Below, piece by piece: positions 2,216 through 62,570 of a DNA stretch of 64,000 bases (within the stretch, counting starts at the first letter, position 1; every line of letters begins with the position of its first letter). A program made the translations under genes and the position numbers. The notes below the pieces were generated by a model. The model was not told the DNA's origin. It ran no database searches and saw nothing but the letters and a program-made list of their open reading frames with translations. This stretch comes from Betaproteobacteria bacterium UBA5216. Lineage in GTDB: Bacteria > Pseudomonadota > Gammaproteobacteria > Burkholderiales > SG8-41. The stretch is from assembly GCA_002412495.1 (NCBI GenBank), contig DHVE01000129.1:45050-109049 (forward strand), in the 5' to 3' direction.

Positions 2216-2229
2216 TTGACGCATATCAA
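2216..2229. promoter_or_regulatory. FNR/CRP-family box TTGACGCATATCAA
   Basis: One mismatch to TTGAT-N4-ATCAA. The centre is about 105 nt upstream of the ATG at 2117. Confidence 0.5.
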
Positions 2230-2761
2230 CCGCAATTACGTGCTGCGCACCGGCGTGGCCGCGCCCCATGCCTCGGAGTCGAGATAACGCGGGTTGCCGG
2301 CGCATATTGAATGCGTTCGATCGAACGGTTGCGGAACACCAATGTGCCAGGGGTCACCACCACTTCGTGACCCAGCCAGTAGGCTTCGACGCCTTCCAGC
2401 AGAAAGCACGCGCCGAGACGTTCGCCGAGTCCCACTACTTCTGCAAACCTTGCATCAGGTTAGCGCCGCCCGTGCGCAGGGTTTCCGCCGGCACTTCGCC
2501 GGTGGTGACGACAAAATTCGACGGTACGAACCTATCGAGCAATTGCCGCATCACGAACATCACCACCTGTTCGTGATGCGGCGACACGCCATTTACCATG
2601 TATTTCGGTGGTGGCGTTGTAGCACCGCTGCTGATAAAACTGAAACGCGCGGTAGTACGAGTTAAACGGCTACCGCCGCCAGCCCCCATGCGTAAAGCGC
2701 GTGTCCTGCGGCAACAGCTCGATGCAGGCGGGACACGGCCCGCGCGCCACCAAGCGGCCAC
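2226..2761 (-). pseudogene. phaC: Remnant of a PHA synthase (phaC) gene: internal N-terminal-region fragment, frameshifted and truncated
   Basis: Two adjacent minus-strand ORFs in different frames (2435-2761, 2226-2435). They read ...FVMRQLLDRFVPSNFVVTTGEVPAETLRTGGANLMQG and ...YWLGHEVVVTPGTLVFRNRSIERIQYAPAT...HGARP. These match the class I PhaC segments ...WVDAMSPANFLATNPEAQRLLIESGGESLRAG and ...FEVGRNVAVTEGAVVFENEYFQLLQYKPLT..HARP. No lipase-box or catalytic domain follows. Confidence 0.55.
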
Positions 2762-2804
2762 GCATCGCCGTCGCGACGCGAATCACGCTCGCGAAGACGC
2801 GCCA

Positions 2805-3251
2805 TCAGCGATACACCAGCACCGGAATTTTGGAATGCGACAACACGCCCGAGGTCTGGCTGCCGAGGATGAACTGCTTCACGCCGCCATGACCGTGCGA
2901 ACCCATCACGATGAGATCGCAATCGTTTTCACGCGCGGTCTCGACAATCGCGTGGTGAGGTGGGTCATCCACCACCACCACGGTGGCGCAGGTCACGCCC
3001 GACTGTTCCGCCTCGGCCGCGAATTGTTCCAGTATCCCCCGCGCACGCTCGGCCATGTCGTTCTCCCAGCCTTTGCGGTTCGCCTTCAACACCGGCGGCG
3101 GATACCCCTTGTCCGCCAGGTGCTGATAGGTCGGGCACGCCATCATCGCGCTAAGCCGGCTCTTTTCCCGCTTGGCGAGATCTATCGCGCGGCGGCCCGC
3201 CTTTAAGGACAGGCCGCTACCGTCGAGTGGAACCAAAATATGCTTGAACAT
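2805..3251 (-). CDS. Universal stress protein (UspA family)
   Basis: MFKHILVPLDGS...DLIVMGSHGHGGVKQFILGSQTSGVLSHSKIPVLVYR carries the canonical USP ATP-binding motif. Confidence 0.9.
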   Translation of the reverse strand: MFKHILVPLDGSGLSLKAGRRAIDLAKREKSRLSAMMACPTYQHLADKGYPPPVLKANRKGWENDMAERARGILEQFAAEAEQSGVTCATVVVVDDPPHHAIVETARENDCDLIVMGSHGHGGVKQFILGSQTSGVLSHSKIPVLVYR

Positions 3252-3261
3252 CGCGCCCGGA

Positions 3262-3708
3262 TCAGCGGTACACCAGCACCGGGATCTTCGAATGCGACAG
3301 TACGCGCGAAGTCTCGCTGCCGAGGATGAACTGCTTCATGCCGCCATGGCCGTGCGATCCAATGACAACCACGTCACAACCGCTTTTATTCGCGGTGTCG
3401 ATAATGGCTTCATGGGGCGAATCGTGGAACGCGTGTACGGCCTTGCATTTCACGCCTGCCTTGGCGGCTTCGGCCTCGATGACCCCGAGCACTTTCTTGG
3501 CGCGTTCGGCCACGTCGGCCTTCCAGCGCTGACGCGCGGCGCCAGCGAGCGGCGCCACAAAACCCTCGTCGGTCAGTTGCTTGTAAGTAGGTGACACCAG
3601 CAGCACGCTCAGTTTGGCGCTGAACACCTTCGCCAGCTCTATCGCCTGCCGCGCCGCCTGCATCGAAAGTTCACTGCCATCCACCGGGGTTAATACATGG
3701 GTAAACAT
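3262..3708 (-). CDS. Universal stress protein (UspA family)
   Basis: MFTHVLTPVDGS...VVVIGSHGHGGMKQFILGSETSRVLSHSKIPVLVYR. ATG 3708 is preceded by AAGGAAAAA. Confidence 0.9.
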   Translation of the reverse strand: MFTHVLTPVDGSELSMQAARQAIELAKVFSAKLSVLLVSPTYKQLTDEGFVAPLAGAARQRWKADVAERAKKVLGVIEAEAAKAGVKCKAVHAFHDSPHEAIIDTANKSGCDVVVIGSHGHGGMKQFILGSETSRVLSHSKIPVLVYR

Positions 3709-3748
3709 GATTTTTCCTTTCAAGTTATTCTGGTTGTGTGGTTTTGAT

Positions 3749-4504
3749 TCAATCGTGGTTCTGTCCTGCCCCGATCACCTGCTCCAATCCGGCGTGATCG
3801 AGTATGTGCAATTGCCGGTTGTTTACTTCTATCAGTCCCGCCTTTTTCAGCCGCGACAGACAGCGGCTTACCGTCTCCAGCGTGAGGCCCAGGTAATTGC
3901 CGATGTCCTCGCGCGCCATGGGCAGGATGAATTCGTTCGGCGACTGGCCGCGCGTCTTGAATCGCTGCGCAAAATTGATCAGAAACGCAGCCACGCGCTC
4001 GTCGGCCTGCATCCGGCCCAGCAGCACCATCACGCCCTGGTCGCGCACCAGTTCGCGGCTCAAGAGGCTCTGCACGTAGCCTTGCACCGGTTCGGCCCGG
4101 CGCGACAGTTGCATCAGGCTTTGATACGGCACGGCGCAGACCCAAGCGTCCTCAAGCGCGACGGCCTCGCTCGGATGCGTGCTGGCGCCGATGGCATCAA
4201 TGCCGAGGCTGTCGCCCGCGAGGTGAAAGCCGGTGATCTGTTCGCGCCCGTCGTGCAGCATCATCACGGATTTGAATGCGCCGGTCTTGACAAAATAAAG
4301 GTGGGTAAAGGCTTCGCCAGCACGATACAGCCGTTCGCCCATGGCAAGGCGCTTGTGCTGGAACACCAGTCCGATGAATTCATCGCGCTCGCCGGCGTCC
4401 AGCCCGGCAGGCACGCATACGGCGTGAAGGCGGCAGTGTTCGCAACTGTCCTTGCGCGCCACCGGGTTCACCGCGCGCAGATGCGTGTGCGTGAGGGGCG
4501 GCAT
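3749..4504 (-). CDS. fnr: FNR-type oxygen-sensing Crp/Fnr transcription regulator, paralog 1
   Basis: KDSCEHCRLHAVC (C-X2-C-X5-C) plus an internal Cys in AWVCAVPY match the FNR [4Fe-4S] ligands. A cNMP-like domain and the C-terminal HTH REDIGNYLGLTLETVSRCLSRL are present. The track ORF extends to 4603; ATG 4504 gives an E. coli-FNR-like N-terminus (see uORF finding). Confidence 0.9.
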   Translation of the reverse strand: MPPLTHTHLRAVNPVARKDSCEHCRLHAVCVPAGLDAGERDEFIGLVFQHKRLAMGERLYRAGEAFTHLYFVKTGAFKSVMMLHDGREQITGFHLAGDSLGIDAIGASTHPSEAVALEDAWVCAVPYQSLMQLSRRAEPVQGYVQSLLSRELVRDQGVMVLLGRMQADERVAAFLINFAQRFKTRGQSPNEFILPMAREDIGNYLGLTLETVSRCLSRLKKAGLIEVNNRQLHILDHAGLEQVIGAGQNHD

Positions 4505-4858
4505 CACGAAGTGGAGCAACGTGTGGCCGCGTGGGCGGCCGTATGGATGCGGGTCTGTGTCAGCATGGTCGGTCTCCGTTGCTTTGCATAGCGCTTCAAT
4601 CATTGCGGTTCAACTGCATGACCGAACTGTAAGCATACGCCCTCGGCGCCGGTATCGGCGGCGTCTTAAACTCGCATGGGACTATCGCCGCGCGGCGCTC
4701 GGACGCCACCTAACGGGCGGTAGGACTTTTCTGATGCCCGGCGGCCGCCGTGGCGTAACGTGAGGTGGGAATGACTCGAAAGACACATATAAATATCGTT
4801 TATAAACAATGCATTACGAAATTTTGCGACAGCAAAAACCCGTTCCTAAACGAAGCAG

Positions 4859-7501
4859 TCAGCGCCTTGCCATGTGACCGTTCAAGCGGCGAAAAAATAC
4901 CCGTTTACTCCACTCCACCAGCAGCAGGTAGAGCGCCACCATCACCGCGAGCAGCCCAAAATACGCGGCCGGCAAGGCCACAAAGCCGAACACTCCCGCA
5001 AGCGGACTAAACGGCAGCCACATCCCCAGCAGCACAACACCCAGCGACATTGCCACCAATCCGGCGGCCGGCCTGCTGTCAAACAGAGGGCGCCGCGTGC
5101 GTATGACAAAAATCACCAGCACCTGTGTCGCCAGCGACTCGACAAACCAACCGGTGCGAAACAACGCTTCATTCGCGGCAAACAAATGCAGCATCACATA
5201 AAACGTCAGCAGATCGAACAGGGAACTGACCGGCCCGACCGTCAACATGAAATTGCGAATCAGGCTGATGTCCCACGGACGCGGCCGCGTCAATTCCTCT
5301 TCGTCGCTGTTGTCGAACGGAATGGCAAATTCCGAAACGTCATAGAGCAGATTGTTAAGCAAGATCTGAATCGGCAGCATCGGCAGAAAGGGCAGTACGG
5401 CGGAACCCACCGCCACGCTCGCCATGTTGCCAAAGTTGGAACTGGTGGCCATCATTACGTACTTGAACACATTGTTTTGCGCGCGACGTCCTTCGCGCAC
5501 GCCGTCGAGCAGCACGCGCAGATCGTGTTTGAGCAGGATGACATCCGCGGCCTCCTTCGCCACATCGACACCGGTATCGACCGAAATGCCGACATCGGCT
5601 GCATGCAGCGCCGGGGCGTCGTTGATACCGTCGCCCATGAAACCCACCGCGTGCCCGCCGCGCCGCAACAGCGCGATGACGCGGCTCTTTTGTGCTGGTG
5701 ACACACGGCAAATCAGGTTCACGCTTTCCAGTTGCGCCAGCAATGCGTGATCATCCAGCGCCGCGATTTGCGCGCCGCTCAACACGCCCGTAATGGCAAT
5801 CCCGGTCTCGCGGCACACGTGCCGCGCCACGCCTTCGTGGTCGCCGGTGACGATCTTTACCGCGATTCCGGCCTGCGCCAGCGCCGCCACCGCCTCGCCC
5901 GCCTCCGCGCGCGGCGGATCGAAGAACGCGGCAAATCCGCAGAACACCAATCCCGCTTCATCATCGATCAGCGCGTGTTCCTGCGTGCGCGGTGTTTCGC
6001 GCCAGGCCACGGCAATCACCCGCAGGCCGTCTTCTTCCAGCGCCTGAAAACGCGCCAACAGGCGGCGGCGAACGGTGTCGTCCGCGGCCATGATGCGTCC
6101 CTCGCCACCGGCTTCAAATTCGGTGCAGTGGCTGATGATGGCTTCCGGCGCGCCCTTGACGATCAATAGCCGCCGCGCGCCATCGTCCAGCAATACCGCC
6201 ACCCTGCGGCGCTCGAAATCGAACGGCACTTCATCGATCTTGCGCCAGCGGCCGGCATTAAATGCAGCGTGGCGCAGAATCGCGTCGTCGAGCGGACTCT
6301 TGATGCCGCTCTCGAAGTAGCTGTTGGCCTGCGCGAGTTCCAGCACGCGGGAGTTCTCGGCGCCGGCTTCGTTGACATGCCGCTCCAGCACGATATTCGC
6401 CTCGGTCAGCGTGCCGGTCTTGTCGGTACACAGCGTGTCAATGCCGCCAAGGTTATGTATCGCCGCCTGGCGCTTGATGATCACGCCCTTGTGCGCCATG
6501 CGCAGCGCGCCGCGCGCCAGACTCACGGTGACAATCATCGGCAATAACTCCGGCGTGAGTCCCACCGCCAGCGCCACCGAGAACATGAACGATTCCAGCC
6601 ACGCGCGATGCAAAGCGGCGTTGACCAGCAGCACGAACAGCACCAGCAGCAGCGTCATGCGCAGGATCAGCAGCCCAAAACGCCGGCTGCCTTCTTCCAG
6701 CGGATTCGGCCCGGCATGGCCGGTCAACTGTTGCGCAATGCCGGCAAGCCGCGTATCACTGCCGGTTTGGCATACCAGCATACGCGCCGTGCCGCTCACC
6801 ACCGAGGTATTCATGAATACCGCATGCGGCACGGCATCGTCTTCCGCCAACGGCGTGGCGACGACCGGCACGGATTGCGCCACGCTGGCATGTTTTTCCA
6901 CCGGAAACGGCTCGCCGGTCAGCAGCGCCTGGTTCACGAACAGATCGCGCGCCTCGAGCAGCACGCCATCCGCCGGCACAATATCGCCGGCGCGCAGCAA
7001 TGCCACGTCACCGGGCACCACGTCGCGAAGCGGCCGTTCCACCGCGACGCCGTCGCGCAGCAGTGTAGCCGTGCAGGAGACCGATTCGCGCAGTTTATCG
7101 ATTGCGCGCTCCGCGCGATATTCCTGCGCGAAGTCGAGCGAGACCGATAGCACAATAATGACACCGATGACGTAAGAACTGGCTGCGTCGCCGGTGATGA
7201 ACGACATTACGCTGGCCGCCAGCAGCAGTACCACCAGTGGATTGCGAAAGCGCGACAGGAATTCGGCCGCCAGCAACCGCCGGCGGTGCGGCGCGGGCTG
7301 ATTCGGCCCATGCCGCTGCAGACGCTGGCGCGCGTCGGCGGTGGCAAGACCGCCAGCGCCCGAGTTCAGCGCTTGCATCAGCGCATCCGGCCGTTCCCGC
7401 CGCCTGGCCGCGTTGAGCGGGTCTGGCGTCTTCGCTATGCGAGGCAACGATGCGGAAGGCACGATCAACCTCCCCGTCAGCCGGGCGCCTCGTGCGCCCA
7501 A
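4859..7501 (-). CDS. mgtA: Magnesium-importing P-type ATPase (MgtA/MgtB type)
   Basis: DKTGTLT, MGDGINDAPAL, ARDLFVNQALLTGEPFPVEK and LLYDVSEFAIPFDNSDEEELTRPRPW closely match MgtA signatures. The start is uncertain (TTG 7501 or ATG 7378). Confidence 0.85.
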   Translation of the reverse strand: MGARGARLTGRLIVPSASLPRIAKTPDPLNAARRRERPDALMQALNSGAGGLATADARQRLQRHGPNQPAPHRRRLLAAEFLSRFRNPLVVLLLAASVMSFITGDAASSYVIGVIIVLSVSLDFAQEYRAERAIDKLRESVSCTATLLRDGVAVERPLRDVVPGDVALLRAGDIVPADGVLLEARDLFVNQALLTGEPFPVEKHASVAQSVPVVATPLAEDDAVPHAVFMNTSVVSGTARMLVCQTGSDTRLAGIAQQLTGHAGPNPLEEGSRRFGLLILRMTLLLVLFVLLVNAALHRAWLESFMFSVALAVGLTPELLPMIVTVSLARGALRMAHKGVIIKRQAAIHNLGGIDTLCTDKTGTLTEANIVLERHVNEAGAENSRVLELAQANSYFESGIKSPLDDAILRHAAFNAGRWRKIDEVPFDFERRRVAVLLDDGARRLLIVKGAPEAIISHCTEFEAGGEGRIMAADDTVRRRLLARFQALEEDGLRVIAVAWRETPRTQEHALIDDEAGLVFCGFAAFFDPPRAEAGEAVAALAQAGIAVKIVTGDHEGVARHVCRETGIAITGVLSGAQIAALDDHALLAQLESVNLICRVSPAQKSRVIALLRRGGHAVGFMGDGINDAPALHAADVGISVDTGVDVAKEAADVILLKHDLRVLLDGVREGRRAQNNVFKYVMMATSSNFGNMASVAVGSAVLPFLPMLPIQILLNNLLYDVSEFAIPFDNSDEEELTRPRPWDISLIRNFMLTVGPVSSLFDLLTFYVMLHLFAANEALFRTGWFVESLATQVLVIFVIRTRRPLFDSRPAAGLVAMSLGVVLLGMWLPFSPLAGVFGFVALPAAYFGLLAVMVALYLLLVEWSKRVFFRRLNGHMARR

Positions 7502-7552
7502 TGCCTCGGGCGAGCCTTCATCGCTCTTATGCCGCGTTAACGTTATGCCGCG

Positions 7553-7999
7553 CTATCGGTACACCACCACCGGTATTTTTGAGTGCGACAGCACGCGCGC
7601 GGTCTCGCTGCCCAGAATGAATTGCTTCATGCCGCCGTAACCGTGCGACCCCATCACCACGACATCACACGCTTTATTCTGCGCGGTGTCGATGATCGCC
7701 TGATAGGGCGCATCGCCGAATACATGCACGGAGTTGCATTGCACGCCGGCCCTGCCGGCCTCCACGCAAATTTTATCGAGTACCGCTTGCGCGCGCCCGG
7801 TCACCTCCTCCTCCCAGCGCTCGCGTATCACATGCACCGTGGGCGCCACAAAGCCCTCTTCGAAATGCCGCCGGTACGTGGGCGACACCATCATTGAAGT
7901 CAATTTCGCGCCACACAGTTTGGCCAATTCGATGCCATGCCGTGCTGCGCTCATCGATAAGTCACTGCCGTCCACCGGAACCAGTACATGGTTAAACAT
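7553..7999 (-). CDS. Universal stress protein (UspA family)
   Basis: MFNHVLVPVDGS...VVVMGSHGYGGMKQFILGSETARVLSHSKIPVVVYR. Confidence 0.9.
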   Translation of the reverse strand: MFNHVLVPVDGSDLSMSAARHGIELAKLCGAKLTSMMVSPTYRRHFEEGFVAPTVHVIRERWEEEVTGRAQAVLDKICVEAGRAGVQCNSVHVFGDAPYQAIIDTAQNKACDVVVMGSHGYGGMKQFILGSETARVLSHSKIPVVVYR

Positions 8000-8060
8000 G
8001 GTTTTCCCCTTAAAAGTGTTGCCAGTTATTCGATTTTGCCGTTGTAGTTACTTCGTTACT

Positions 8061-8885
8061 TCAATCGTGGTTCTGTCCTGCCCCGATCACCTGCTCCAAG
8101 CCGGCGTGATCGAGTATGCGCAACTGCCGGTTGTTCACTTCTATCAGTCCCGCTTTTTTCAGCCGCGACAGGCAGCGGCTCACCGTCTCCAGCGTGAGAC
8201 CCAGGTAATTGCCGATGTCTTCGCGTACCATGGGCAGGATGAATTCGTTCGGCGACTGGCCGCGTGTCTTGAATCGCTGCGCCAGATTGATCAGAAACAC
8301 CGCCACGCGCTCTTCGGCCTGCATCCGGCCCAGCAGCAGCATCACGCCCTGGTCGCGCACCAGTTCGCGGCTCAAGAGGTTCTGCACGTAGCTTTGCACC
8401 GGTTCGGCGCGGCGCGACAACTGCATCAGGCTCTGATACGGCACGGCGCAAACCCAAGCCTCTTCGATCGCCACGGCCTCGCTCGGATGCGCGCTGTCGC
8501 CAATGGCATCAATACCCAGCATATCTCCCGCCAAATGAAAGCCGGTGATCTGTTCGCGCCCGTCGTGCAGCATCATCACGGATTTGAATGCGCCGGTCTT
8601 GACGAAATAAAGATGGGTAAAGGCTTCGCCAGCACGATACAAACGCTCGCCCACGGCGAAGCGCTTGTGCTGGAACACCAGGCCGATGAATTCATCGCGC
8701 TCGCCGGCGTCCAGCCCATCCGGTACGCATACGGCGTGAAGGCGACAGTTTTCGCAGTTGTCCTTGCGCGCCACGGGATTCACCGCGCGCAGATGCGTGC
8801 GTGTGAGAGGCAGCCTCACGGGATGTAACACCGTGTGGCCGCGGGGGGTGGCCGCATGGGCAGGGGCATGGGTCTGTGTCAGCAT
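8061..8885 (-). CDS. fnr: FNR-type oxygen-sensing Crp/Fnr transcription regulator, paralog 2
   Basis: About 18 substitutions over about 245 aligned residues versus paralog 1. Same KDNCENCRLHAVC and AWVCAVPY Cys set. ATG 8885 (MLTQTH...) has GGAG upstream. Confidence 0.9.
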   Translation of the reverse strand: MLTQTHAPAHAATPRGHTVLHPVRLPLTRTHLRAVNPVARKDNCENCRLHAVCVPDGLDAGERDEFIGLVFQHKRFAVGERLYRAGEAFTHLYFVKTGAFKSVMMLHDGREQITGFHLAGDMLGIDAIGDSAHPSEAVAIEEAWVCAVPYQSLMQLSRRAEPVQSYVQNLLSRELVRDQGVMLLLGRMQAEERVAVFLINLAQRFKTRGQSPNEFILPMVREDIGNYLGLTLETVSRCLSRLKKAGLIEVNNRQLRILDHAGLEQVIGAGQNHD

Positions 8886-9116
8886 GGTCGGTCTCCGTTG
8901 CAAGGTTCAATCACTGGGTTCAAAGGCATGACTGAACTGTAGGCATGCGGCTTCGGCGCCGGTATCGGCGGCGTCTTAAACTCGCGTGGGACTATCGCTA
9001 CGCGGCACTCGGATACCGCCTACGCGGGGTAGGACTTTTCCGAACAGGCGGGGGCGGCAGAACGCAGCCCCCTTTCGGGAGTCTCTAAAACTTATTAATT
9101 AACAATTACTTACCTA

Positions 9117-10391
9117 TCACCACTGAAAAAGCACCGCCAGCACCAATCCCGCTGATGCGGCGGCAAATGGCAACGCACATTGCCGCGCCAGCGCCGCGCT
9201 GCCTGCCGCCAGCGCGATGGCGAACTTGAAAACAATGTTCGCCACATAGGCGATGACAATCGCGATCACCGCCGTGCTCGCGTCTATCCTGCTGGTGTTG
9301 AACAATTGCAAACTCGACAGACTGATCGCATCGACATCGGCGACGCCGGACACCGCGGCGATCGCATACAGACCCCGGTTACCCCACATGTCCGACAGCC
9401 ACGCGGCGCCGAGCAAGACGCAGGCGTAGACCAGTCCGAACAGGGCCGCCACGCGCAATTGCGTGGGGTTTTCAGCCACCGGCAGATTCAGGGCGGCGGG
9501 ATTCGCCGCCGCGCGCGATTGCCAAAGCACCGGCAGCACACCGCACCCTGCGCCCGCCGCCAGCACCGGCAGTAATCGCGGCAAGGCCTCCGGCGCCGCG
9601 ATGCCGCCGATCACCGCAAGACGCAATAACACCATCAGGTTGGCAATGGTGATCACAGACGACGCCAGCAGGGTCATTTCCCGGTGCGTGGCGCATTGCC
9701 GCGCATAGACCAGCGTGGTGGCCGTGCTCGACACCAATCCCCCCAGCGCGCCGATCAGCAGCAGGCCGTGCCGCCGTTCCGCCAGCCGCAGCGCCAGATA
9801 ACCGCTGAGACTCACGCCCGAAATCAACACCACCATCAGCCACAGATGATGGGGATTCAGCGCCTGATACGGCCCGTATCCCTGGTTGGGCAACAGCGGC
9901 AGCACGATAAACGACAACACCGCGAATTGCAGCATGCTGGTGATATCGCCCGGCGCCAGACGATCGGAAAAGCCATGCAATTCCGTCTTGAAATGCAACA
10001 ACACCGTGGCCGCGATGGCAAGTCCCACCGCATGTTGCGTGCGGCCGTACCACACCATCACGCCCAGCACGTAACACAGCAGCACCGCGATCACGGTGGT
10101 GGTGCCCGATTCGCCTTCGGGCAGCGCTTCACCGGCGTAAGCAGCAATAATCATGGCGCCGGCAAGCAACAAGCCCGCGGTTACGACCCACGTGGATTGC
10201 GTGACCTGCGCCAGCAAACCACAGATGGTGCCAAACAGCGCCACCAGCGCACAGGTACGCAACCCCGCCTTGGCAATGGGATTGCGCTGGCGCTCCAGCC
10301 CGAGCAGCAGCCCGATTGCAAGGCTGGTCATGAACTGCAAAGGCACTTGCAGTTCATCCATGACGTTCATCAGCGCCGGCGCGGTGTTCAT
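9117..10391 (-). CDS. MgtC/SapB-family N-terminal domain fused to DUF4010 polytopic membrane domain
   Basis: The N-terminus LAIGLLLGLERQRNPIAKAGLRTCALVAL is the MgtC-family motif. It is followed by about 300 aa of hydrophobic helices. Confidence 0.75.
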   Translation of the reverse strand: MNTAPALMNVMDELQVPLQFMTSLAIGLLLGLERQRNPIAKAGLRTCALVALFGTICGLLAQVTQSTWVVTAGLLLAGAMIIAAYAGEALPEGESGTTTVIAVLLCYVLGVMVWYGRTQHAVGLAIAATVLLHFKTELHGFSDRLAPGDITSMLQFAVLSFIVLPLLPNQGYGPYQALNPHHLWLMVVLISGVSLSGYLALRLAERRHGLLLIGALGGLVSSTATTLVYARQCATHREMTLLASSVITIANLMVLLRLAVIGGIAAPEALPRLLPVLAAGAGCGVLPVLWQSRAAANPAALNLPVAENPTQLRVAALFGLVYACVLLGAAWLSDMWGNRGLYAIAAVSGVADVDAISLSSLQLFNTSRIDASTAVIAIVIAYVANIVFKFAIALAAGSAALARQCALPFAAASAGLVLAVLFQW

Positions 10392-10425
10392 GACCGCACG
10401 TTACGGTTCCGCCACCGCGCCGCGC

Positions 10426-10439
10426 TTGATCTGGATCAA
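10426..10439. promoter_or_regulatory. FNR box TTGATCTGGATCAA (perfect)
   Basis: Perfect palindromic consensus in the divergent region between 10391(-) and 10508(+). A -41.5 placement predicts a TSS near 10474 and a 34-nt leader for the radical SAM gene. Confidence 0.7.
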
Positions 10440-10507
10440 CCACCGGCCACGCATGCCCCGGTATGGTGGGCGTAAATTTTGCGCCTAGCGTATCCACAGG
10501 AGCCGCC

Positions 10508-11476
10508 GTGCCTTCCCCTTCCCCTTCGATTACCGAACGCATCGACAGCACCACCCGCATTCCGCAATCGCACCGCACGGCCGCGCCGCCGGCGCCGCGT
10601 AGCGTCAAGATCGAAATATCGCCGCGTTGCAATTACCGCTGCGGCTTTTGCGCGTTGCGCACGCGCGAGGTGCAGCCCAAATGGGACATGGATTTCGAAC
10701 TGTTCAAACGCATCACGCGCGAGATGCGCGACGCCGGAGTCGAGGAAATCGGTGTGTTTTATCTCGGTGAATCATTCATGAATCCGCGGCTGCTGGTGGA
10801 CTGCATCCGCTATCTCAAGCGCGATATCGGCATGCCGTATGTGTTTTTAACGTCCAACGCCTCGATGGCGTTTCCGGAGGCGGTGCGCGCCTGCATGGAG
10901 GCGGGGCTCGATTCGCTGAAGTGGTCGGTCAATGCGGCTGATGAAGATCAGTTCAAGAAAATCATGGGCGTGTCGGAGCGGCTGTTTGAAACGGCGCTCG
11001 GCAATATCCAGAGCGCCTGGGAGGAACGCCGCCGCGGCGGCTACGCGACCGGTCTTTATGCCTCGTCCATTCGTTACGACGGCGAACAACACGACAGAAT
11101 GCAGCGTCTGCTGGCGCAACGCGTGCTGCCCTACGTGGATCAGCACTACTGGCTGCCGCTGTATTCGATGGGCGCGTTCGCGACGGTACGCGAAAAGCAG
11201 TTGGGGTTTCTGCCGACCGCAGGAAATCAGGGCCGGCTGGATGCCCTGCGAGAGCCGCTGCCCTGCTGGTCGGCGTTTACCGAGGGTCACGTCACCGCCG
11301 AGGGCAAACTGTCGGCCTGCTGCTTTGACGCGACGGCGCATTGGACCATGGGGGATCTGAACACCACGCCGTTCATGGACGCGTGGAACTCGCCCGGATT
11401 CGTCAAGCTGCGCGCGGCGCACCTGGCGCGCGATGTGCGCGGCACCGTGTGCGAAAAATGCATCGCTTATTCCTGA
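10508..11476 (+). CDS. Radical SAM enzyme with Cys-rich C-terminal (SPASM/twitch-like) extension, function unknown
   Basis: CNYRCGFC is the CX3CX2C motif. C-terminal cysteines occur at PCWSAF...LSACCFD...GTVCEKC. GTG 10508 is in frame and follows AGGAG; the track ORF starts at 10463. Confidence 0.8.
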   Translation: MPSPSPSITERIDSTTRIPQSHRTAAPPAPRSVKIEISPRCNYRCGFCALRTREVQPKWDMDFELFKRITREMRDAGVEEIGVFYLGESFMNPRLLVDCIRYLKRDIGMPYVFLTSNASMAFPEAVRACMEAGLDSLKWSVNAADEDQFKKIMGVSERLFETALGNIQSAWEERRRGGYATGLYASSIRYDGEQHDRMQRLLAQRVLPYVDQHYWLPLYSMGAFATVREKQLGFLPTAGNQGRLDALREPLPCWSAFTEGHVTAEGKLSACCFDATAHWTMGDLNTTPFMDAWNSPGFVKLRAAHLARDVRGTVCEKCIAYS

Positions 11477-11513: not shown

Positions 11514-12302
11514 ATGACTTCACATACGCCTCAGCCTTCCCAGGCGCGAAACGTCGTTCGCCTTGATTCCAAGCGGCCGCACGGCGTGTGTTCCACCTGC
11601 CGCGTTCGTGAGCTGTGTCTGCCTTCCGGGCTGAGCGCCGCCGACCTTGCGACCGTAAACCATTACATCCATCGCAAGCACACCGTTGCGCGCGGCGAGG
11701 CGCTGTTTGCCTACCAAGAGCCTTTGCAAATGCTGTATGCCCTGCGCACGGGGTTCATGAAAAGCAGCGTACCGCATCCGGACGGCGGCGAGCAGGTCAC
11801 TGGATTTCACATGTCCGGCGACCTGATCGGGCTGGACGCACTGGCCGATGGCGTGACCATCTGCAAGGTCACCGCGCTCCAAGACAGCGAAATCTGTGAA
11901 ATATCACTCAATGCGCTGGAACTGCTCACGCGCAAGGTAGCGCCGTTGCAAAGGCATTTTCATCGCGTGATGAGCCGCGAAATCGTGCATCGCCACGAAA
12001 TGATGCTGCTGCTGGCGAACGTGCGCGCGCAGGAGCGCGTCGCCCTGTTTCTGCTCGACCTGTCACAACGCCATGCGGCCCGTGGCTACCCGGCGGTTGA
12101 TTTCGTGCTGCACATGACGCGCACCGATATCGGCAGTTATCTCGGATTGACCATCGAAACCGTGTGCCGCGGGCTGGCGCAACTGCACAAGGAAAAGCGG
12201 ATCGAGATGAATGGCCGCCATATCCGCATCACCGATCTGGCCGGTCTGACATTCATGGCCAATCGCGGCGCGGCCGCGCTGAATCCCGCCGCCCCGCATT
12301 AA
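11514..12302 (+). CDS. FNR-type Crp/Fnr transcription regulator, paralog 3 (divergent)
   Basis: HGVCSTCRVRELC (C-X2-C-X5-C) and DSEICEISL. HTH is RTDIGSYLGLTIETVCRGLAQL. Start trimmed to ATG 11514 (MTSHTPQ). Confidence 0.85.
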   Translation: MTSHTPQPSQARNVVRLDSKRPHGVCSTCRVRELCLPSGLSAADLATVNHYIHRKHTVARGEALFAYQEPLQMLYALRTGFMKSSVPHPDGGEQVTGFHMSGDLIGLDALADGVTICKVTALQDSEICEISLNALELLTRKVAPLQRHFHRVMSREIVHRHEMMLLLANVRAQERVALFLLDLSQRHAARGYPAVDFVLHMTRTDIGSYLGLTIETVCRGLAQLHKEKRIEMNGRHIRITDLAGLTFMANRGAAALNPAAPH

Positions 12303-12323: not shown

Positions 12324-12587
12324 TTACAGGCGATCCGCGCCGCGAAACAATTCGCTGATCTCGGCCTGCGCGTTTTCGGCGTCTTCCTCGCTCATGTCAC
12401 CGGGCTGCCGGTGGAAATAGTCACCCACGTGGCGAAAAACCGGCTCGTTCTCCAGCGGAGCATCTTCCAGTTCTTCAAGTTCCAGCATCGTGGTATCCAC
12501 CGGCGGGGCGTGCCGTACCTGCCTGGCATTTCGATTAAGCCGCTGACGGGTCTTGCGTCCGGTAAGGGTGCGGGGTTGCGATTGCAT
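12324..12587 (-). CDS. Small hypothetical protein, basic N-terminus and acidic C-terminus
   Basis: 87-codon ORF from ATG 12587 with AGAGGAA upstream. No family recognised. Confidence 0.4.
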   Translation of the reverse strand: MQSQPRTLTGRKTRQRLNRNARQVRHAPPVDTTMLELEELEDAPLENEPVFRHVGDYFHRQPGDMSEEDAENAQAEISELFRGADRL

Positions 12588-12736
12588 GATGTTTGATTCC
12601 TCTTGTGAACGTTGCGTGATGTGGCCGAGAATCACATGTTACAGGTCGCGTGAATCGCTTGAACGGCGCCCCTTCTGCACCGCGTAGCTTCATCCAGCGC
12701 TTGTAATTGATGCTAGGTGTCCTGTCACCGCGCGGA

Positions 12737-12750
12737 TTGACCTGTATCAA
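12737..12750. promoter_or_regulatory. FNR box TTGACCTGTATCAA
   Basis: One mismatch to consensus. It is oriented and spaced to serve the divergent small gene (predicted TSS near 12702). Confidence 0.5.
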
Positions 12751-12790: not shown

Positions 12791-12804
12791 TTGATCTGGA
12801 TCAA
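12791..12804. promoter_or_regulatory. FNR box TTGATCTGGATCAA (perfect)
   Basis: The centre is 78.5 nt upstream of the usp ATG 12876, predicting a 37-nt leader. Confidence 0.7.
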
Positions 12805-12875
12805 AACGCCGTCATGCGTCATAGTTATGCTGTGGTTGCGTAATACCAGACCCGTTATCCGGAAAGGAACAAAAA

Positions 12876-13325
12876 ATGATCAAGAACATACTTATACCCA
12901 CGGACGGTTCCACGCTGTCTCGCCGCGCAGCCAAGGACGCCGTGGAGCTGGCGCAAAAACTCGGCGCACGCGTCACCGGGTTTTATGTCGCACCGGCCTA
13001 TCACATTGAGGTGTACGACGACATGGTGTATGTGCCCCCCGATCTGCTGAACCCGAAAACGCACGCGGCCAATGCAAAAAAGGCGGCGGAACGTTATCTG
13101 GAGTTCATTAAGAAAATGGCGGCGGACCGCGGCGTGCCTTACGAAGGGTATTTCGTGATGAACGATTCGCCGTCCGATGCCATTGTGAAGGCCGCGCGAA
13201 AATACAAATGCGATCTGATCTACATGGGCTCGCATGGACGCACCGGCATCACCAAACTGCTGCTGGGCAGCCAGACCAACAAGGTGCTTACGCAAACCCG
13301 CATTCCGGTATTGGTACACCGTTAA
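12876..13325 (+). CDS. Universal stress protein (UspA family)
   Basis: MIKNILIPTDGS...DLIYMGSHGRTGITKLLLGSQTNKVLTQTRIPVLVHR. Confidence 0.9.
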   Translation: MIKNILIPTDGSTLSRRAAKDAVELAQKLGARVTGFYVAPAYHIEVYDDMVYVPPDLLNPKTHAANAKKAAERYLEFIKKMAADRGVPYEGYFVMNDSPSDAIVKAARKYKCDLIYMGSHGRTGITKLLLGSQTNKVLTQTRIPVLVHR

Positions 13326-13350: not shown

Positions 13351-13650
13351 ATGAGCGCACAAACCGAAAGACTGGTGACCGACGTCAAAGTATTGGTCAA
13401 CGACACGGAAGAACTGGTAAAAGCCACCGCGGCGCAAGCAGGCGACAAAATCGTCGATCTGCGTAACCGCGCGCAGGCGGCCGTCAACAATGTGAAGCCG
13501 CAGTTGGCAAGAATCGAGACGGCCGTGGTTGAAAAAGCCAAAAGCACCGCCACGGCAACCGATACCTACATCCGCGAGAACCCTTGGGCGGCCATCGGCG
13601 CGTCCGCCGGGATCGGATTGGTAATCGGCTTGCTGATCGGGCGGCGCTAG
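13351..13650 (+). CDS. ElaB/YqjD/DUF883 family membrane-anchored stress protein
   Basis: The C-terminus ...IRENPWAAIGASAGIGLVIGLLIGRR is the family signature tail anchor. Confidence 0.8.
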   Translation: MSAQTERLVTDVKVLVNDTEELVKATAAQAGDKIVDLRNRAQAAVNNVKPQLARIETAVVEKAKSTATATDTYIRENPWAAIGASAGIGLVIGLLIGRR

Positions 13651-16374: not shown

Positions 16375-16388
16375 TTGATTCAGATCAA
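16375..16388. promoter_or_regulatory. FNR box TTGATTCAGATCAA (perfect half-sites)
   Basis: Lies between the kinase start (16278, minus) and the receiver gene. It predicts a TSS near 16423 and a 34-nt leader to ATG 16457. Confidence 0.65.
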
Positions 16389-16456
16389 TCGCAAATCAGG
16401 CACACGAAATATATTCTACCAGCCGCCTCTACGGGGCGGAGTCATCGTACAAAAGC

Positions 16457-17642: not shown

Positions 17643-17656
17643 TTGATCCCTATCAA
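17643..17656. promoter_or_regulatory. FNR box TTGATCCCTATCAA (perfect half-sites)
   Basis: Divergent region. It predicts a 28-nt leader to ATG 17580 (minus) or a 103-nt leader to ATG 17794 (plus). Confidence 0.65.
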
Positions 17657-17793
17657 GCGTATGGGCCTGAATAGGCGGCACCACCGTTATCCTGTTTGAT
17701 ACAAGTCAACGAAGCGGGTTCGAGGATTCCTAGAATGTACCTGTTTTATGCATGCTGGCGACATCGGCTACGTTACCAAGGAGGTGGCGAACA

Positions 17794-23252: not shown

Positions 23253-23266
23253 TTGATGTATATCAA
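23253..23266. promoter_or_regulatory. FNR box TTGATGTATATCAA (perfect half-sites)
   Basis: Divergent region between 23154(-) and 23356(+). Predicted leaders are about 64 nt and 55 nt. Confidence 0.65.
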
Positions 23267-25263: not shown

Positions 25264-25408
25264 CGGTTTTCTGTATCTGCGTTTACCACCATGAAGCGTT
25301 CATCTTCCCGTGCCTGGATAGGCTTATACAAGCTGTAAACAGAGATTAATCTACTCTGAACCCGGCCCCGGCACTTTGCGCTGAATCAACGCGCATGCAC
25401 GACGCATC

Positions 25409-27959: not shown

Positions 27960-27973
27960 CTGATATGGATCAA
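27960..27973. promoter_or_regulatory. FNR-like box CTGATATGGATCAA
   Basis: One mismatch to consensus. It could serve the plus-strand efflux operon (predicted TSS near 28008). Confidence 0.45.
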
Positions 27974-27993: not shown

Positions 27994-28007
27994 TTGATTC
28001 AGGTCAA
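27994..28007. promoter_or_regulatory. FNR-like box TTGATTCAGGTCAA
   Basis: One mismatch to consensus. It predicts a TSS near 27959 and a 43-nt leader for ftsH (minus). Confidence 0.5.
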
Positions 28008-35045: not shown

Positions 35046-35334
35046 CGGGGGCGTCCTCCAAAATACAGATCTATCAACTATGGCCGCGCGGCATCGTTGC
35101 ATCTTGCGTTGGATCAACGTATCGGCGTGCCGTACGGCAGGTGCTCAGGGATGACGCTTTGGGCCCACTATCGGCCTTATGGTCAAGGACAACACACGCG
35201 TACTCCAGCGAAACATTGCCAGCGAGACACTACCCGCGGGCAACCGGCGGCTCGAATTGCTTATGGGGCAAACTCGACAATGTGCCAATCATCCCAAACA
35301 ATGATTATTTGACGCCAGAAATTGAGCGACCGCA

Positions 35335-35348
35335 TTGATATTTGTCAA
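35335..35348. promoter_or_regulatory. FNR-like box TTGATATTTGTCAA
   Basis: One mismatch to consensus. It predicts a TSS near 35383 and a 30-nt leader to ATG 35413. Confidence 0.5.
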
Positions 35349-36083: not shown

Positions 36084-36097
36084 TTGCGCTAGATCAA
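36084..36097. promoter_or_regulatory. Degenerate FNR-like box TTGCGCTAGATCAA
   Basis: One perfect half-site and one 3/5 half-site, the same shape as the focA-proximal box. It predicts a TSS near 36132. Confidence 0.35.
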
Positions 36098-39093: not shown

Positions 39094-39107
39094 TTGACCA
39101 AGATCAA
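39094..39107. promoter_or_regulatory. FNR-like box TTGACCAAGATCAA
   Basis: One mismatch to consensus. It predicts a TSS near 39142 and a 40-nt leader to ATG 39182. Confidence 0.5.
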
Positions 39108-44927: not shown

Positions 44928-44956
<29 letters not shown>

Positions 44957-47464: not shown

Positions 47465-47478
47465 TTGATCTGGATCAA
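47465..47478. promoter_or_regulatory. FNR box TTGATCTGGATCAA (perfect)
   Basis: Lies in the 155-nt gap upstream of the Lon-like gene. It predicts a TSS near 47430 and a 70-nt leader. Confidence 0.7.
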
Positions 47479-48184: not shown

Positions 48185-48198
48185 TTGATCTAAATCAA
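48185..48198. promoter_or_regulatory. FNR box TTGATCTAAATCAA (perfect half-sites)
   Basis: Predicts a TSS near 48150 and a 44-nt leader to the hemerythrin ATG 48106. Confidence 0.7.
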
Positions 48199-48304: not shown

Positions 48305-48318
48305 TTGATCTGGCGCAA
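48305..48318. promoter_or_regulatory. Degenerate FNR-like box TTGATCTGGCGCAA
   Basis: Perfect left half-site and a 3/5 right half-site. It predicts a TSS near 48353 and a 37-nt leader to ATG 48390. Confidence 0.45.
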
Positions 48319-60082: not shown

Positions 60083-60252
60083 CGTTGTGCCCTCGATCTC
60101 GCCGGCAGGTTATCTTCGTCGTCGTTAAGCGCGAGGCGCGCCGCCGCTTCAAAGTCTTCGCTGCGACGCGAACTCCATGCCCACACCACAATGCCAATGA
60201 ATGCCGCAAACAGCACCACCGTCATGATCGATCTGAATAGTCCTATATCCAT
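60079..60252 (-). CDS. ccoQ: cbb3-type cytochrome c oxidase subunit Q
   Basis: 57-aa ORF below the track cutoff: MDIGLFRSIMTVVLFAAFIGIVVWAWSSRRSEDFEAAARLALNDDEDNL... Its stop overlaps the ccoP ATG (ATGA). Confidence 0.8.
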   Translation of the reverse strand: MDIGLFRSIMTVVLFAAFIGIVVWAWSSRRSEDFEAAARLALNDDEDNLPARSRAQR

Positions 60253-60279
60253 GCTTACCGCACCTCATTCAGTTGCGTC

Positions 60280-60900
60280 TTATTTGACATTGCGCAGCAC
60301 CAGGCCCAATCCCTGCAAATAGGCGATCAGCGCATCCATTTCCGTCTTGCCTTTAACGCTTTGTGCGGCGGCATCGATGTCGGCGTCGGCATACGGCACG
60401 CCCACCGAACGCAACGCGCGCATCTTCGCGGGCAGCACCGCCGCATCGACTGCGGCGTTTTGCAGCCATGCATAGGCCGGCATATTTGACTCCGGCACCA
60501 GATCGCGCGGATTAATCAGGTGCAGGCGATGCCACTCATCGGAGTAACGCCGGCCCACGCGGGCCAGATCGGGGCCGGTGCGTTTAGAGCCCCACAGAAA
60601 CGGATGGTCATAGACGAATTCGCCCGCCACCGAATAGTGACCATAACGCTCGGTTTCGGCGCGAAACGGCCGGATCATCTGCGAATGGCAGTTACCGCAG
60701 CCTTCGCGCACATAGATGTCGCGGCCGGCAAGCTGGATCGCGGTGTAGGGCTTCAGTCCGGCCACGGGCTGCGTGGTGGACTTCTGAAAGTACAGCGGCA
60801 CGATCTCCACCAGCCCGCCGACGCTGATGACCAGGATCACCAGCACCATCAGGAGGCCGATGTTGCGTTCAATAATAGTGTGTGCGGATGTGAAGTTCAT
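60280..60900 (-). CDS. ccoO: cbb3-type cytochrome c oxidase subunit O (mono-heme)
   Basis: [12 protein letters not shown]...VEIVPLYF...[17 protein letters not shown]. Start trimmed to ATG 60900. Confidence 0.9.
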
Positions 60901-60919
60901 AATGAAATTAGCCTTCGTT

Positions 60920-62344
60920 CTAGGCGTGCGCAACACGCACGGCGGGTATCGACGCTTCGAAGGGGCGCTGGCCCGCGACGGTTTTCCATACGTTCCATGC
61001 CATGATCAGCATGCCGCTGAAGTACAGCAGCCCGCCCATGAGACGGATCACATAATAGGGATAGGTGGCCTTGACCGATTCGGCGAAGCTGTAGGTCAAC
61101 GTGCCGTCGTCGTTCACCGCGCGCCACATCAGGCCCTGCATCACGCCGGCAATCCACATTGCCGCGATATACAGCACGATGCCGATGGTGGCCACCCAGA
61201 AATGCACGTTGATGAGCTGCACGCTGTGCATGGTGGCGCGACCGTAGAGCCGCGGAATCAGGTAGTAGAGGCTGCCCATCGACACCAGTCCCACCCACCC
61301 CAGCGCGCCCGAGTGAACATGTCCCACCGTCCAGTCGGTATAGTGCGACAGCGCGTTGACGGTCTTGATCGCCATCATCGGCCCCTCGAACGTGGACATG
61401 CCATAAAACGACAGCGACACCACCAGAAACTTGAGTATCGGGTCGTCGCGAAGCTTATGCCACGCGCCCGATAGCGTCATGATGCCGTTGATCATGCCGC
61501 CCCATGACGGCGCCAGCAGAATCAGCGAGAAAATCATGCCGAGCGACTGCGCCCAGTCCGGCAGCGCGGTGTAATGCAGGTGATGCGGCCCCGCCCACAT
61601 ATAAGTGAATATGAGCGCCCAGAAATGCACCACCGACAGCCGGTAGGAATAAATCGGCCGTTCCGCCTGCTTGGGAATGAAGTAATACATCATGCCCAGA
61701 AATCCGGCGGTCAGAAAAAATCCCACCGCATTGTGGCCGTACCACCATTGCACCATCGCGTCCTGCACGCCCGCATAGACCGAGTACGATTTCCAGAACG
61801 TCACGGGCACCGCCGCGCTATTGACCAGGTGCAGCACCGCCACGGTGAGAATAAATGCGCCGAAAAACCAGTTGGCGACATAAATATGCGGCGTCTTGCG
61901 TTTAGCCACTGTGCCGAAAAACACCACCGCGTACGACACCCACACCAGCGTGATCAGAATATCAATCGGCCATTCGAGTTCGGCGTATTCCTTGGCGGTG
62001 CTGATGCCCAGCGGCAGCGTAATCGCCGCCAGCACGATCACCGCCTGCCAGCCCCAGAACGTAAAGGATGCCAGTGCCGGCGCGAACAAGCGCGCGTGGC
62101 AGGTGCGCTGCACCACGTAATAAGAGGTGGTGAACAGCGCGGAACCGCCGAACGCAAAGATCACCGCGTTGGTGTGCAACGGCCGCAATCGGCCATACGA
62201 CAGCCACGGCGTCACATTCAATTCCGGCCAGATCAGTTGTGCGGCGATCAGGACCCCCACGAGCATTCCGACCACCCCCCACACCACCGTCATCAAAGCA
62301 AACTGCCGCACTACGGTGTAGTTATACGTCTCGCGCAATTCCAT
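60920..62344 (-). CDS. ccoN: cbb3-type cytochrome c oxidase catalytic subunit N
   Basis: 474 aa, 12 or more helices, with [27 protein letters not shown] and [17 protein letters not shown] heme/CuB ligand motifs. Confidence 0.95.
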
Positions 62345-62372
62345 AAGCTCCCCTTAACGAATGTCTTCAATG

Positions 62373-62570
62373 CTACGAAACCGGCCGGCGCGGCATTTGA
62401 TCCAGATCAAGCCGCTTGGTGATTGCGGGTTCGTCGTCATCCATCAGCACCCGGTGCGCCGGCCCCTCCAGATCATCAAACTGCCCGCCGCGCAGCGCCC
62501 ACCAGAAGGCAAGGCCCACCGGTATCACCAGCGCCACCGACAGCGGAATCAGCAGATAAAGAATATCCAT
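62373..62570 (-). CDS. ccoS: cbb3 oxidase maturation protein CcoS/FixS
   Basis: MDILYLLIPLSVALVIPVGLAFWWALRGGQFDDLEGPAHRVL is the family signature. Confidence 0.85.
   Translation of the reverse strand: MDILYLLIPLSVALVIPVGLAFWWALRGGQFDDLEGPAHRVLMDDDEPAITKRLDLDQMPRRPVS
62397..62410. promoter_or_regulatory. FNR box TTGATCCAGATCAA (perfect half-sites) for ccoN
   Basis: The centre is 59.5 nt upstream of the ccoN ATG 62344 (RBS GGGGAG). The box lies inside the 3-prime end of the ccoS coding sequence. Confidence 0.75.

Follow-up and report, generated by a model that had tools for sequence, protein, structure and literature searches.

The closest described counterpart of the locus analysed here is the lxa locus of Burkholderia cenocepacia J2315 (BCAM0275a-BCAM0323), which comprises 50 genes and has 17 intergenic occurrences of an Anr/FNR-like motif (PMC3721108). 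The locus is induced 2- to >240-fold at 6% O2 and is required for anoxic survival (PMC3721108; PMC12071387). It encodes six universal stress proteins (USPs), an Anr-like regulator, two-component systems, a class II ribonucleotide reductase (RNR), an FtsH protease, a transporter with ABC, adaptor and outer-membrane components, and a cation ATPase (PMC3721108). We have analysed a 64-kb stretch of DNA, referred to as a whole as the window, from Betaproteobacteria bacterium UBA5216, an uncultured betaproteobacterium for which metagenome assemblies are the sole source. To judge from its binding sites and genes, the window probably holds the greater part of a clustered FNR regulon for low oxygen, in which palindromes of the form TTGAT-N4-ATCAA (boxes) stand before most transcription units and three genes encode FNR-type regulators. 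The arrangement is already known in kind, being an lxa-like, FNR-controlled low-oxygen cluster, and is not the first of its sort.

The likeness to lxa extends to both architecture and content. Each is a contiguous betaproteobacterial cluster of about 50 genes spread over 50-60 kb, with 17 sites in lxa and 19 in the window, and both have several USPs, an Anr-like Crp/Fnr regulator, two-component systems, a class II RNR, an FtsH-type Zn protease, an ABC transporter with adaptor and outer-membrane component, a cation P-type ATPase and cytochrome c. The two differ in that lxa has one Anr-like regulator, whereas the window has three FNR paralogs with the cluster cysteines, and in that the window has in addition a cbb3 oxidase, fixGHIS, a LonC-like protease, a hemerythrin-domain protein, MgtA, MgtC, a 2-oxoacid:ferredoxin oxidoreductase with an amino-acid dehydrogenase, and an aspartate 4-decarboxylase (AsdA). 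Conversely, Pfam scans of the window genes found none of the small heat-shock protein, BON/phospholipid-binding protein, acetate kinase/Pta and alcohol dehydrogenases of lxa. If the prediction holds, the presence here of the cbb3 oxidase, the oxidoreductase, LonC, MgtA and MgtC shows such islands to be modular in the genes that they carry. Polyhydroxyalkanoate (PHA) synthase is intact in lxa but is represented in the window by an 84-aa N-terminal fragment; the 84-codon open reading frame (ORF) concerned (2435-2689, minus strand) matches the N-terminus of PHA synthase alone (PhaC_N, E=6e-10) and is probably a gene remnant. Low-oxygen induction and a survival phenotype have been shown for lxa, whereas the window is known from its sites and genes and is likened to lxa by architecture and content.

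Three further systems bear comparison. Herbaspirillum seropedicae is, like the present host, a betaproteobacterium with three Fnr paralogs, of which Fnr1 and Fnr3 bind 80 promoters genome-wide, including those of fixNOP, ompW, fixIS, usp genes and cytochromes; its fnr1 is activated by Fnr3, and it uses canonical boxes of the FNR/FixK type (PMC5934665). Those 80 promoters are distributed over a genome, whereas about 20 lie within 64 kb here, and this contrast is the best available yardstick of what may be called a cluster. Among pseudomonads, where the Anr regulon of Pseudomonas aeruginosa also bears comparison, P. putida likewise has an established multi-FNR hierarchy, with three cysteine-cluster FNR proteins, ANR, PP_3233 and PP_3287, which differ in their reactivity with O2 (PMC4505428), and USPs and the cbb3 oxidase are Anr targets, as they would be here, although the literature compared does not present the Anr targets as one cluster. 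The DosR regulon of Mycobacterium tuberculosis likewise includes many USPs, a class II RNR and a cation P-type ATPase, and is induced by hypoxia for non-replicating survival, an overlap in content already pointed out for lxa by Sass et al. in 2013 (PMC3721108). Its regulator (the DosS/T-DosR two-component system) and its DNA motif are unrelated to those considered here, and the resemblance is one of function, not of homology.

Coordinates below count from the first base of the window, and flanking DNA is numbered in the same system. The flanks were read from a metagenome contig of 164,867 nt (ena:ERZ27299056:k141_251025), positions 47,656-111,655 of which are identical to the window, giving 79.5 kb of examined DNA in all (-7195 to 72345). 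The gene map of the window (about 62 genes) was made from stored gene calls together with Pfam and NCBIfam scans, and target units were drawn as runs of same-strand genes with short gaps between them. Proteins identical to those of the window are present in an NCBI metagenome-assembled genome (GCA_900299225.1). Among species representatives the closest is 'Betaproteobacteria bacterium AM_0616', whose LonC-like protein is 82% identical, and the 90% cluster of CcoN includes a protein from a Tepidimonas metagenome-assembled genome (MAG).

Boxes are far more frequent in the window than its composition predicts. Eight perfect copies are present against 0.06 expected, a number that none of 100 dinucleotide-preserving shuffles of the whole window reached, and 20 copies have at most one mismatch against 1.23 expected. 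The intergenic DNA, defined by the gene-caller coordinates, amounts to 6,423 nt with a G+C content of 54% (61% overall) and holds seven perfect boxes, 14 with up to one mismatch and 21 with up to two, compared with 0.002, 0.20 and 2.5 in first-order Markov simulations; because these simulations were run on the intergenic composition, the lower intergenic G+C content does not explain the enrichment. The original prediction had listed 16 boxes, and a box is indeed present at every one of these coordinates (eight perfect, six with one mismatch and two, at 36084 and 48305, with two). That list was incomplete, having overlooked boxes at 17696 (one mismatch), 25376 and 35104 (two each), the addition of which brings the promoter-associated boxes in the window to 19. 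It had also placed all of its boxes in intergenic or 5' regions, which holds for all except that at 62397, which lies within the 3' end of fixS (65 codons, 62373-62570, minus strand), its centre 59.5 nt before the start codon of ccoN.

The enrichment is specific to one spacing and one motif. With the gap between TTGAT and ATCAA varied from 0 to 11 nt, matches were obtained at 4 nt only, and the CRP-type motif TGTGA-N6-TCACA had no match in the window with one mismatch allowed. In the oriented alignment of the sites the promoter-distal half-site is TTGAT in 21 of 23, the proximal half also occurring as GTCAA and CGCAA, and the first T and last A of the box (T1 and A14) are almost invariant in the window; no subclass resembling the Group II boxes of H. 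seropedicae is therefore evident, and nothing in the window points to heterodimers. Position 6 of the box is C, T or A, and the three groups of sites so formed could mirror preferences of the different paralogs, but an assignment of boxes to paralogs by this sub-motif was tried and dropped, as the groups tie to no particular regulator.

The 14-mer TTGATCTGGATCAA was predicted to occur three times and does so (10426, 12791 and 47465), and its reverse complement at 62397 provides a fourth copy; a second 14-mer, TTGATTCAGGTCAA, occurs twice, at 27994 and at 65931 in the right flank. Such identical copies are what would be expected if the palindromes were copies of a short repeat, or chance matches in AT-richer intergenic DNA, with no regulatory role. 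We consider this explanation hardly credible. The sequences flanking the boxes are unrelated to one another, so that the boxes are to be regarded as sites rather than as copies of a repeat, and a repeat search of the window returned the duplicated fnr-usp modules (described below) alone. Chance is countered by the 14 intergenic boxes against 0.2 simulated and by the strict spacing of the half-sites, and neither version agrees with the phased, gene-facing -10 elements or with the conservation of boxes before orthologous genes in a rearranged relative, both set out below.

Every intergenic box was aligned on its first base in both orientations and searched for -10-like hexamers, defined as TAnnnT or as at least four of six matches to TATAAT, the offset being the number of nucleotides from the first base of the box to the hexamer. 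A hexamer lies at an offset of 35-36 on the gene-facing side for 19 of 22 boxes (binomial P ~8e-13). Among the 44 box-orientations, offsets 35 and 36 together collect 13 TAnnnT hexamers and 19 with at least four of six matches, compared with about one at each of the other offsets. As a control, none of the five one-mismatch boxes lying deep within genes (18436, 20449, 34120, 42719 and 61365) has a hexamer at the class II distance. If the hexamer is taken as positions -12 to -7, the box centre falls, by this proxy, at -40.5 or -41.5, and class II FNR activator sites are centred near -41.5. These results support the view that the boxes act as class II FNR activator sites before most transcription units. 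Class II architecture had previously been argued from predicted leaders of 18-70 nt; with the gene-caller start codons the leaders range from 0 to 115 nt (median 37 nt), and the phased -10 hexamer gives the class II claim a better foundation than did the argument from leader length.

As the hexamer always faces the gene, it also assigns the target of each box (Table 1). At 16375 no -10 element lies at the class II distance on the side of the divergent PAS-HisKA_3 kinase/GerE response regulator operon, while at 10426 hexamers are found on both sides, and this box may serve the radical SAM-fnr3 unit on one side and the DUF4010 gene on the other. In the latter direction exactly 41.5 nt separate the box centre from the annotated ATG; the DUF4010/MgtC-family transcript would then be leaderless, unless the true start codon is farther downstream. 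The less expected targets named in the original prediction, namely FtsH, the LonC-like protease, the radical SAM/SPASM enzyme, the CarS-like protein, the efflux pump, aspartate 4-decarboxylase and the CYTH operon, are real genes, each with a box and a -10 hexamer before it.

Table 1. Predicted FNR boxes with the units that they face, the three fnr genes, and units in the window that have no box. Strand is that of the target unit or gene; the hexamer is the -10-like element, with its offset from the first base of the box.
Feature	Coordinates	Strand	Match to TTGAT-N4-ATCAA	Target unit or product	Hexamer, coordinates (offset)
Box	2216..2229	-	1 mismatch	flavodoxin-fold FMN reductase 1530-2117 (box centre to start codon, 105.5 nt)	TATGTT 2188-2193 (36)
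Box	10426..10439	both	perfect	rightward, radical SAM/SPASM (10508-11476) + fnr3; leftward, DUF4010/MgtC-family 9117-10391	TATGGT 10462-10467, plus (36); TAACGT 10398-10403, minus (36)
Box	12737..12750	-	1 mismatch	87-aa protein, function unassigned, 12324-12587	TAGCAT 12710-12715 (35)
Box	12791..12804	+	perfect	USP (usp-d) 12876-13325, DUF883 13351-13650, 131-aa protein 13671-14066	TATGCT 12826-12831 (35)
Box	16375..16388	+	perfect	stand-alone receiver-domain protein 16457-16903	TATATT 16410-16415 (35)
Box	17643..17656	-	perfect	VTT/DedA-family membrane protein 17023-17580	CATAAT 17615-17620 (36)
Box	17696..17709	+	1 mismatch	operon 17794-22503: CYTH, Na/sulfate-type symporter, MgtC, CbpA-like DnaJ, CbpM-like MerR_2 (Pfam)	TAGAAT 17731-17736 (35)
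Box	23253..23266	+	perfect	CarS-like/CTP-transferase family 23356-23853 (PF01864)	TAGTGT 23288-23293 (35)
Box	25376..25389	-	2 mismatches, weak	452-aa P-loop-like protein 23905-25263	TAGATT 25348-25353 (36)
Box	27960..27973	-	1 mismatch	FtsH paralog 26027-27916 + MarC 25409-26014	TAGCAT 27933-27938 (35)
Box	27994..28007	+	1 mismatch	MacAB-TolC-type efflux operon 28076-32909: outer-membrane factor, HlyD-type adaptor, ABC ATPase, MacB permease (Pfam)	TGTAAT 28030-28035 (36)
Box	35104..35117	-	2 mismatches, weak	DUF6600 protein 33081-35045	CATAGT 35077-35082 (35)
Box	35335..35348	+	1 mismatch	flavin reductase 35413-35949	TAAATT 35372-35377 (37)
Box	36084..36097	+	2 mismatches, weak	414-aa protein 36173-37417 + aspartate 4-decarboxylase 37447-39042	TAGTCT 36119-36124 (35)
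Box	39094..39107	+	1 mismatch	lipoprotein 39182-39814	GATAAC 39130-39135, weak (36)
Box	47465..47478	-	perfect	7.5-kb operon, 47360 down to 39827: LonC-like protease, USP-like 265-aa protein, Glu/Leu-type dehydrogenase, then three-subunit 2-oxoacid:ferredoxin oxidoreductase, 42-aa ORF	CATAAT 47438-47443 (35)
Box	48185..48198	-	perfect	hemerythrin-domain protein 47516-48106	GATATT 48157-48162 (36)
Box	48305..48318	+	2 mismatches, weak	formate/nitrite-family (FNT) channel 48390-49217 + class II (B12) RNR 49318-52194	TGTGAT 48341-48346 (36)
Box	62397..62410	-	perfect (in 3' end of fixS)	ccoNOQP-fixGH-DsbD_2, 62344 down to 56097	TAGCAT 62370-62375 (35)
Right-flank box	65857		perfect	upstream of ompW-fixIS	
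Right-flank box	65931		1 mismatch	glycerol-3-phosphate dehydrogenase	
Right-flank box	67034		perfect	solute-binding protein	weak
fnr1	3749..4603	-		Crp/Fnr, 284 aa	
fnr2	8061..8885	-		Crp/Fnr, 274 aa; then USP 7553-7999 and MgtA-type P-type ATPase 4859-7378	
fnr3	11514..12302	+		Crp/Fnr, 262 aa; behind radical SAM/SPASM 10508-11476 and perfect box 10426	
Box-less unit	left edge			CheB/CheR-kinase fusion	
Box-less unit				fnr1-usp-usp	
Box-less unit				fnr2-usp-mgtA	
Box-less unit	14093-16278	-		PAS kinase/response regulator operon	
Box-less unit				200-aa protein	
Box-less unit	52.6-55.7 kb			methyltransferase, DUF1330, cytochrome c	

The comparison with relatives bears both on the sites and on the genes behind them. 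The locus of the nearest relative carries seven boxes in 18 kb (0.48 expected) in a rearranged gene order, and these boxes precede the orthologs of the FNT, LonC and VTT genes and of the gene for the 87-aa protein. A box with at most one mismatch stands before the LonC-like gene in 12 of 80 loci (the nearest relative and 11 others), all 12 of them proteobacterial and drawn from several classes, and on a Cupriavidus megaplasmid that encodes USP-FtsH, a LonC-like protein, Hsp20 and alanine dehydrogenase there are six one-mismatch boxes, where 0.42 would be expected. The LonC-like, USP-like 265-aa and 452-aa P-loop-like genes of the nearest relative are contiguous (5815-10453 of that locus), which suggests that the three work together; in the window the gene for the 452-aa protein (23905-25263) is 20 kb from the LonC/USP-like pair (44159-47360) and has a weak box of its own.

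Three Crp/Fnr genes with the C-X2-C-X5-C motif and an internal cysteine had been described in the window, and alignment to Aliivibrio FNR and of the paralogs with one another bears this out; the first of them is called at 3749-4603, however, and not at 3749-4504. All three products contain the cNMP_binding (PF00027), HTH_Crp_2 (PF13545) and Crp (PF00325) domains of Pfam. FNR1 matches the crystallised FNR of Aliivibrio fischeri (5cvr/5e44) with E=1.7e-55, the C-X2-C-X5-C motif, the internal cysteine and the ETVSR helix being in register, and the cysteines C54, C57, C63 and C156 of FNR1 align to those of the Aliivibrio protein in columns that are invariant in all three paralogs. The cluster ligands of E. 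coli FNR are C20, C23, C29 and C122, and a recognition helix of the form E--SR reads TTGAT. The helix is ETVSR in FNR1 and FNR2 and ETVCR in FNR3. The E. coli and P. aeruginosa references in the paralog alignment agree with the Aliivibrio alignment.

The residue that follows the second cysteine, at the position of Ser24 in E. coli FNR, is arginine in all three paralogs. The corresponding S24R change in E. coli FNR stabilizes the cluster against O2 and gives aerobic activity, and PP_3287 of P. putida, which has arginine at this position and cysteine for serine in the recognition helix, is a less O2-reactive paralog expected by its authors to recognise an FNR box (PMC4505428). FNR3 shares both of these features with PP_3287. 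Arginine occurs in all three paralogs of the window, unlike the case in P. putida, and differing O2 sensitivities, which were measured in P. putida, are a prediction for the present proteins. Because of this arginine, the paralogs may already be active under micro-oxic conditions, and it may give them a micro-oxic set-point.

Identity to FNR1 is 87% for FNR2 and 35% for FNR3. The DNA of fnr1 and fnr2 is repeated both in the 3' part of the gene (3748-4047 and 8060-8359, 94%) and in 106 nt upstream of it (4607-4712 and 8917-9022, 87%), and to judge from this similarity the two are recent segmental duplicates of a module that includes the downstream usp gene. The usp genes starting at 2804, 3261 and 7552 are 69-74% identical to one another, and fnr1 is probably co-transcribed with two of them (3262-3708 and 2805-3251). 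Upstream of fnr1 (4604-4858) and of fnr2 there is no box, even with two mismatches allowed, and the sequence shared by the two upstream regions has no recognisable regulator site. Since fnr1 and fnr2 are box-less, their products are probably the primary sensors, and they probably induce fnr3, which lies behind a perfect box; a cascade in which fnr3 follows fnr1 and fnr2 can reasonably be inferred.

Several observations weigh against the view that the window is most of a clustered regulon governed by its own FNR proteins. The scores of FNR1, FNR2 and FNR3 with the NCBIfam Fnr model (NF008365), 221.6, 226.0 and 208.1 bits, are below its cutoff of 228, although Fnr is the best NCBIfam model for all three, about 100 bits over FixK, FnrL and CRP. 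Six near-consensus boxes, including that in fixS, lie in coding DNA, where 0.94 are expected, and are unexplained, and the -10 assignments are weak for some boxes (39094 and 67034). Several units of the window have no box, among them the fnr1 and fnr2 operons, which contain three of the five USPs, and on the right the flanking DNA is still box-bearing to at least 67047. In addition, proteins of the FixK, Dnr and NnrR types recognise the same box, so that the paralogs encoded in the window need not be the sole binders, or the actual ones.

This last point leads to the possibility that the promoters are genuine low-oxygen promoters whose main binder is a Crp/Fnr-family protein encoded elsewhere, of the FixK, Dnr or NnrR type and under a FixLJ-like system, the local paralogs having a minor or different role. 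The core TTGA-N6-TCAA is common to FixK/Anr-type proteins (PMC12071387; PMC5934665), a FixLJ-FixK route has been proposed for the Burkholderia lxa locus (PMC12071387), PAS-kinase/GerE two-component systems are encoded in the window, and the absence of boxes from fnr1 and fnr2 fits an outside regulator. Against it, the cluster itself encodes three full-cysteine FNRs with E--SR or E--CR helices, fnr3 stands behind a perfect box, and no Cys-less Crp-family gene was found among the genes of the 79.5 kb examined. We therefore hold control from elsewhere to be unlikely and prefer the local FNR proteins as regulators of the cluster.

The limits of the cluster call for a narrower wording than that of the original prediction, which had treated the whole window as one FNR island. 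Box-driven units account for about 46 of the 62 genes, but in view of the several box-less units 'whole window' is an overstatement, and at the right the cluster exceeds the window. The continuation of the boxes past that edge could also be taken to mean that the sites are functional but the island illusory, the genome-wide FNR regulon being unusually large and the window no denser than the rest. This is very unlikely in our judgement: at some 20 promoters per 64 kb, a genome of a few Mb would contain more than 1,000 FNR promoters, as against the 80 of H. seropedicae, the 7.2-kb left flank has no box with one mismatch or fewer, and the 3.1 boxes per 10 kb of the window compare with 0-0.5 at most LonC-like loci from other phyla. 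A mobile genomic island was also considered and was ruled out, as the window has no tRNA, no integrase and no compositional break; for the same reason 'island' is to be understood in the regulatory sense only. The genes ompW-fixI-fixS-ccoNOQP-fixGH-DsbD_2 follow one another in this order on one strand, up to position 65783 in window coordinates.

In the clustered regulon that we favour, a fall in O2 would allow the [4Fe-4S] forms of FNR to dimerise, and the dimers would bind the boxes and recruit RNA polymerase at class II promoters, switching on about 46 genes together, with the fnr1 and fnr2 products as primary sensors inducing fnr3 in a cascade. The predicted output in respiration would be the high-affinity cbb3 oxidase with its assembly genes, accompanied by a class II RNR needing no O2, the FNT channel and the hemerythrin-domain protein. 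On the metabolic side it would provide the 2-oxoacid:ferredoxin oxidoreductase with the amino-acid dehydrogenase and aspartate 4-decarboxylase; it would further include USPs and the USP-like protein, the FtsH and LonC-like proteases and the CbpA/CbpM chaperone pair, MgtC-family proteins and the MacAB-type efflux pump. Such a programme would serve to respire trace oxygen and to survive growth arrest.

It is conceivable, though we put it forward as a speculation more likely to be wrong than right, that the cluster is a self-contained anoxia-survival module with a built-in sensor cascade, tuned by arginine to micro-oxia, and with effectors new to FNR control or to hypoxic persistence. The main new effector candidate may be the trio of LonC-like protease, USP-like protein and P-loop protein, and further candidates may be the FtsH paralog subfamily and the MgtA/MgtC set, which could throttle ATP synthesis. 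If the clustered regulon is as we propose, one type of sensor governs a compact, near-complete tool-kit for trace-oxygen respiration and anoxic persistence, and the lxa concept extends past the Burkholderia cepacia complex, in which interest has centred on its part in chronic infection. The DUF6600 protein, the 452-, 265-, 200- and 87-aa proteins and the CYTH operon would then be candidate anoxic-persistence factors with a regulatory handle. The principle of regulation is itself not new, and the interest lies mainly in these candidate persistence genes and in the triple-FNR arrangement.

By category, the gene inventory of the window comprises, for stress, five USPs, one USP-like protein and DUF883; for signalling, the three Crp/Fnr genes, the PAS-HisKA_3 kinase with a GerE-type response regulator, and the stand-alone receiver protein; for proteolysis and chaperones, the FtsH paralog with MarC, the LonC-like protease and the CbpA/CbpM pair; and, with function unassigned, DUF6600 and several smaller proteins. 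The aspartate 4-decarboxylase is matched by the NCBIfam equivalog PRK09275 with 663.8 bits against a cutoff of 321. An energy-conserving shuttle with an Asp:Ala antiporter beside the decarboxylase was considered and dropped, as the 414-aa protein encoded upstream has a weak porin-like match (Porin_O_P, E=0.0017); no such antiporter was found. Rfam matched no riboswitch or other known RNA in the window at the gathering score.

The predicted leader of ftsH is about 9 nt long and has GGAGGA within it. Homologs of this FtsH paralog with 72-78% identity are found in many Burkholderiales MAGs, in Methylococcus sp. EFPC2 and in one Thermodesulfobacteriota MAG, a distribution that suggests a distinct, laterally spread FtsH subfamily; among the best 120 matches Methylococcus sp. 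EFPC2 is the one complete genome, the others being MAGs, and its neighbouring genes are unrelated to the island. The class II RNR (958 aa; TIGR02504 NrdJ_Z, 599 bits against a cutoff of 400) has full-length homologs on large plasmids of Pseudomonas, Sulfuricystis, Hydrogenophaga and others. Two of the plasmid matches obtained by tblastn, in Burkholderia vietnamiensis G4 pBVIE01 and Sulfuricystis pSTJ2, were considered as lxa-like loci and rejected, since the homolog lies there amid conjugation and maintenance genes.

Just beyond the box-rich region on the left, positions 1-1358 and the left flank encode a 1,134-aa fusion of CheB methylesterase, CheR methyltransferase, PAS and histidine-kinase ATPase domains, followed by a GerE-type response regulator. 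The MgtA-type Mg2+ P-type ATPase (4859-7378; TIGR01524, 868 bits), which trails fnr2-usp and has no box of its own, clusters with two MgtC-family proteins (9117-10391 and 20492-21193).

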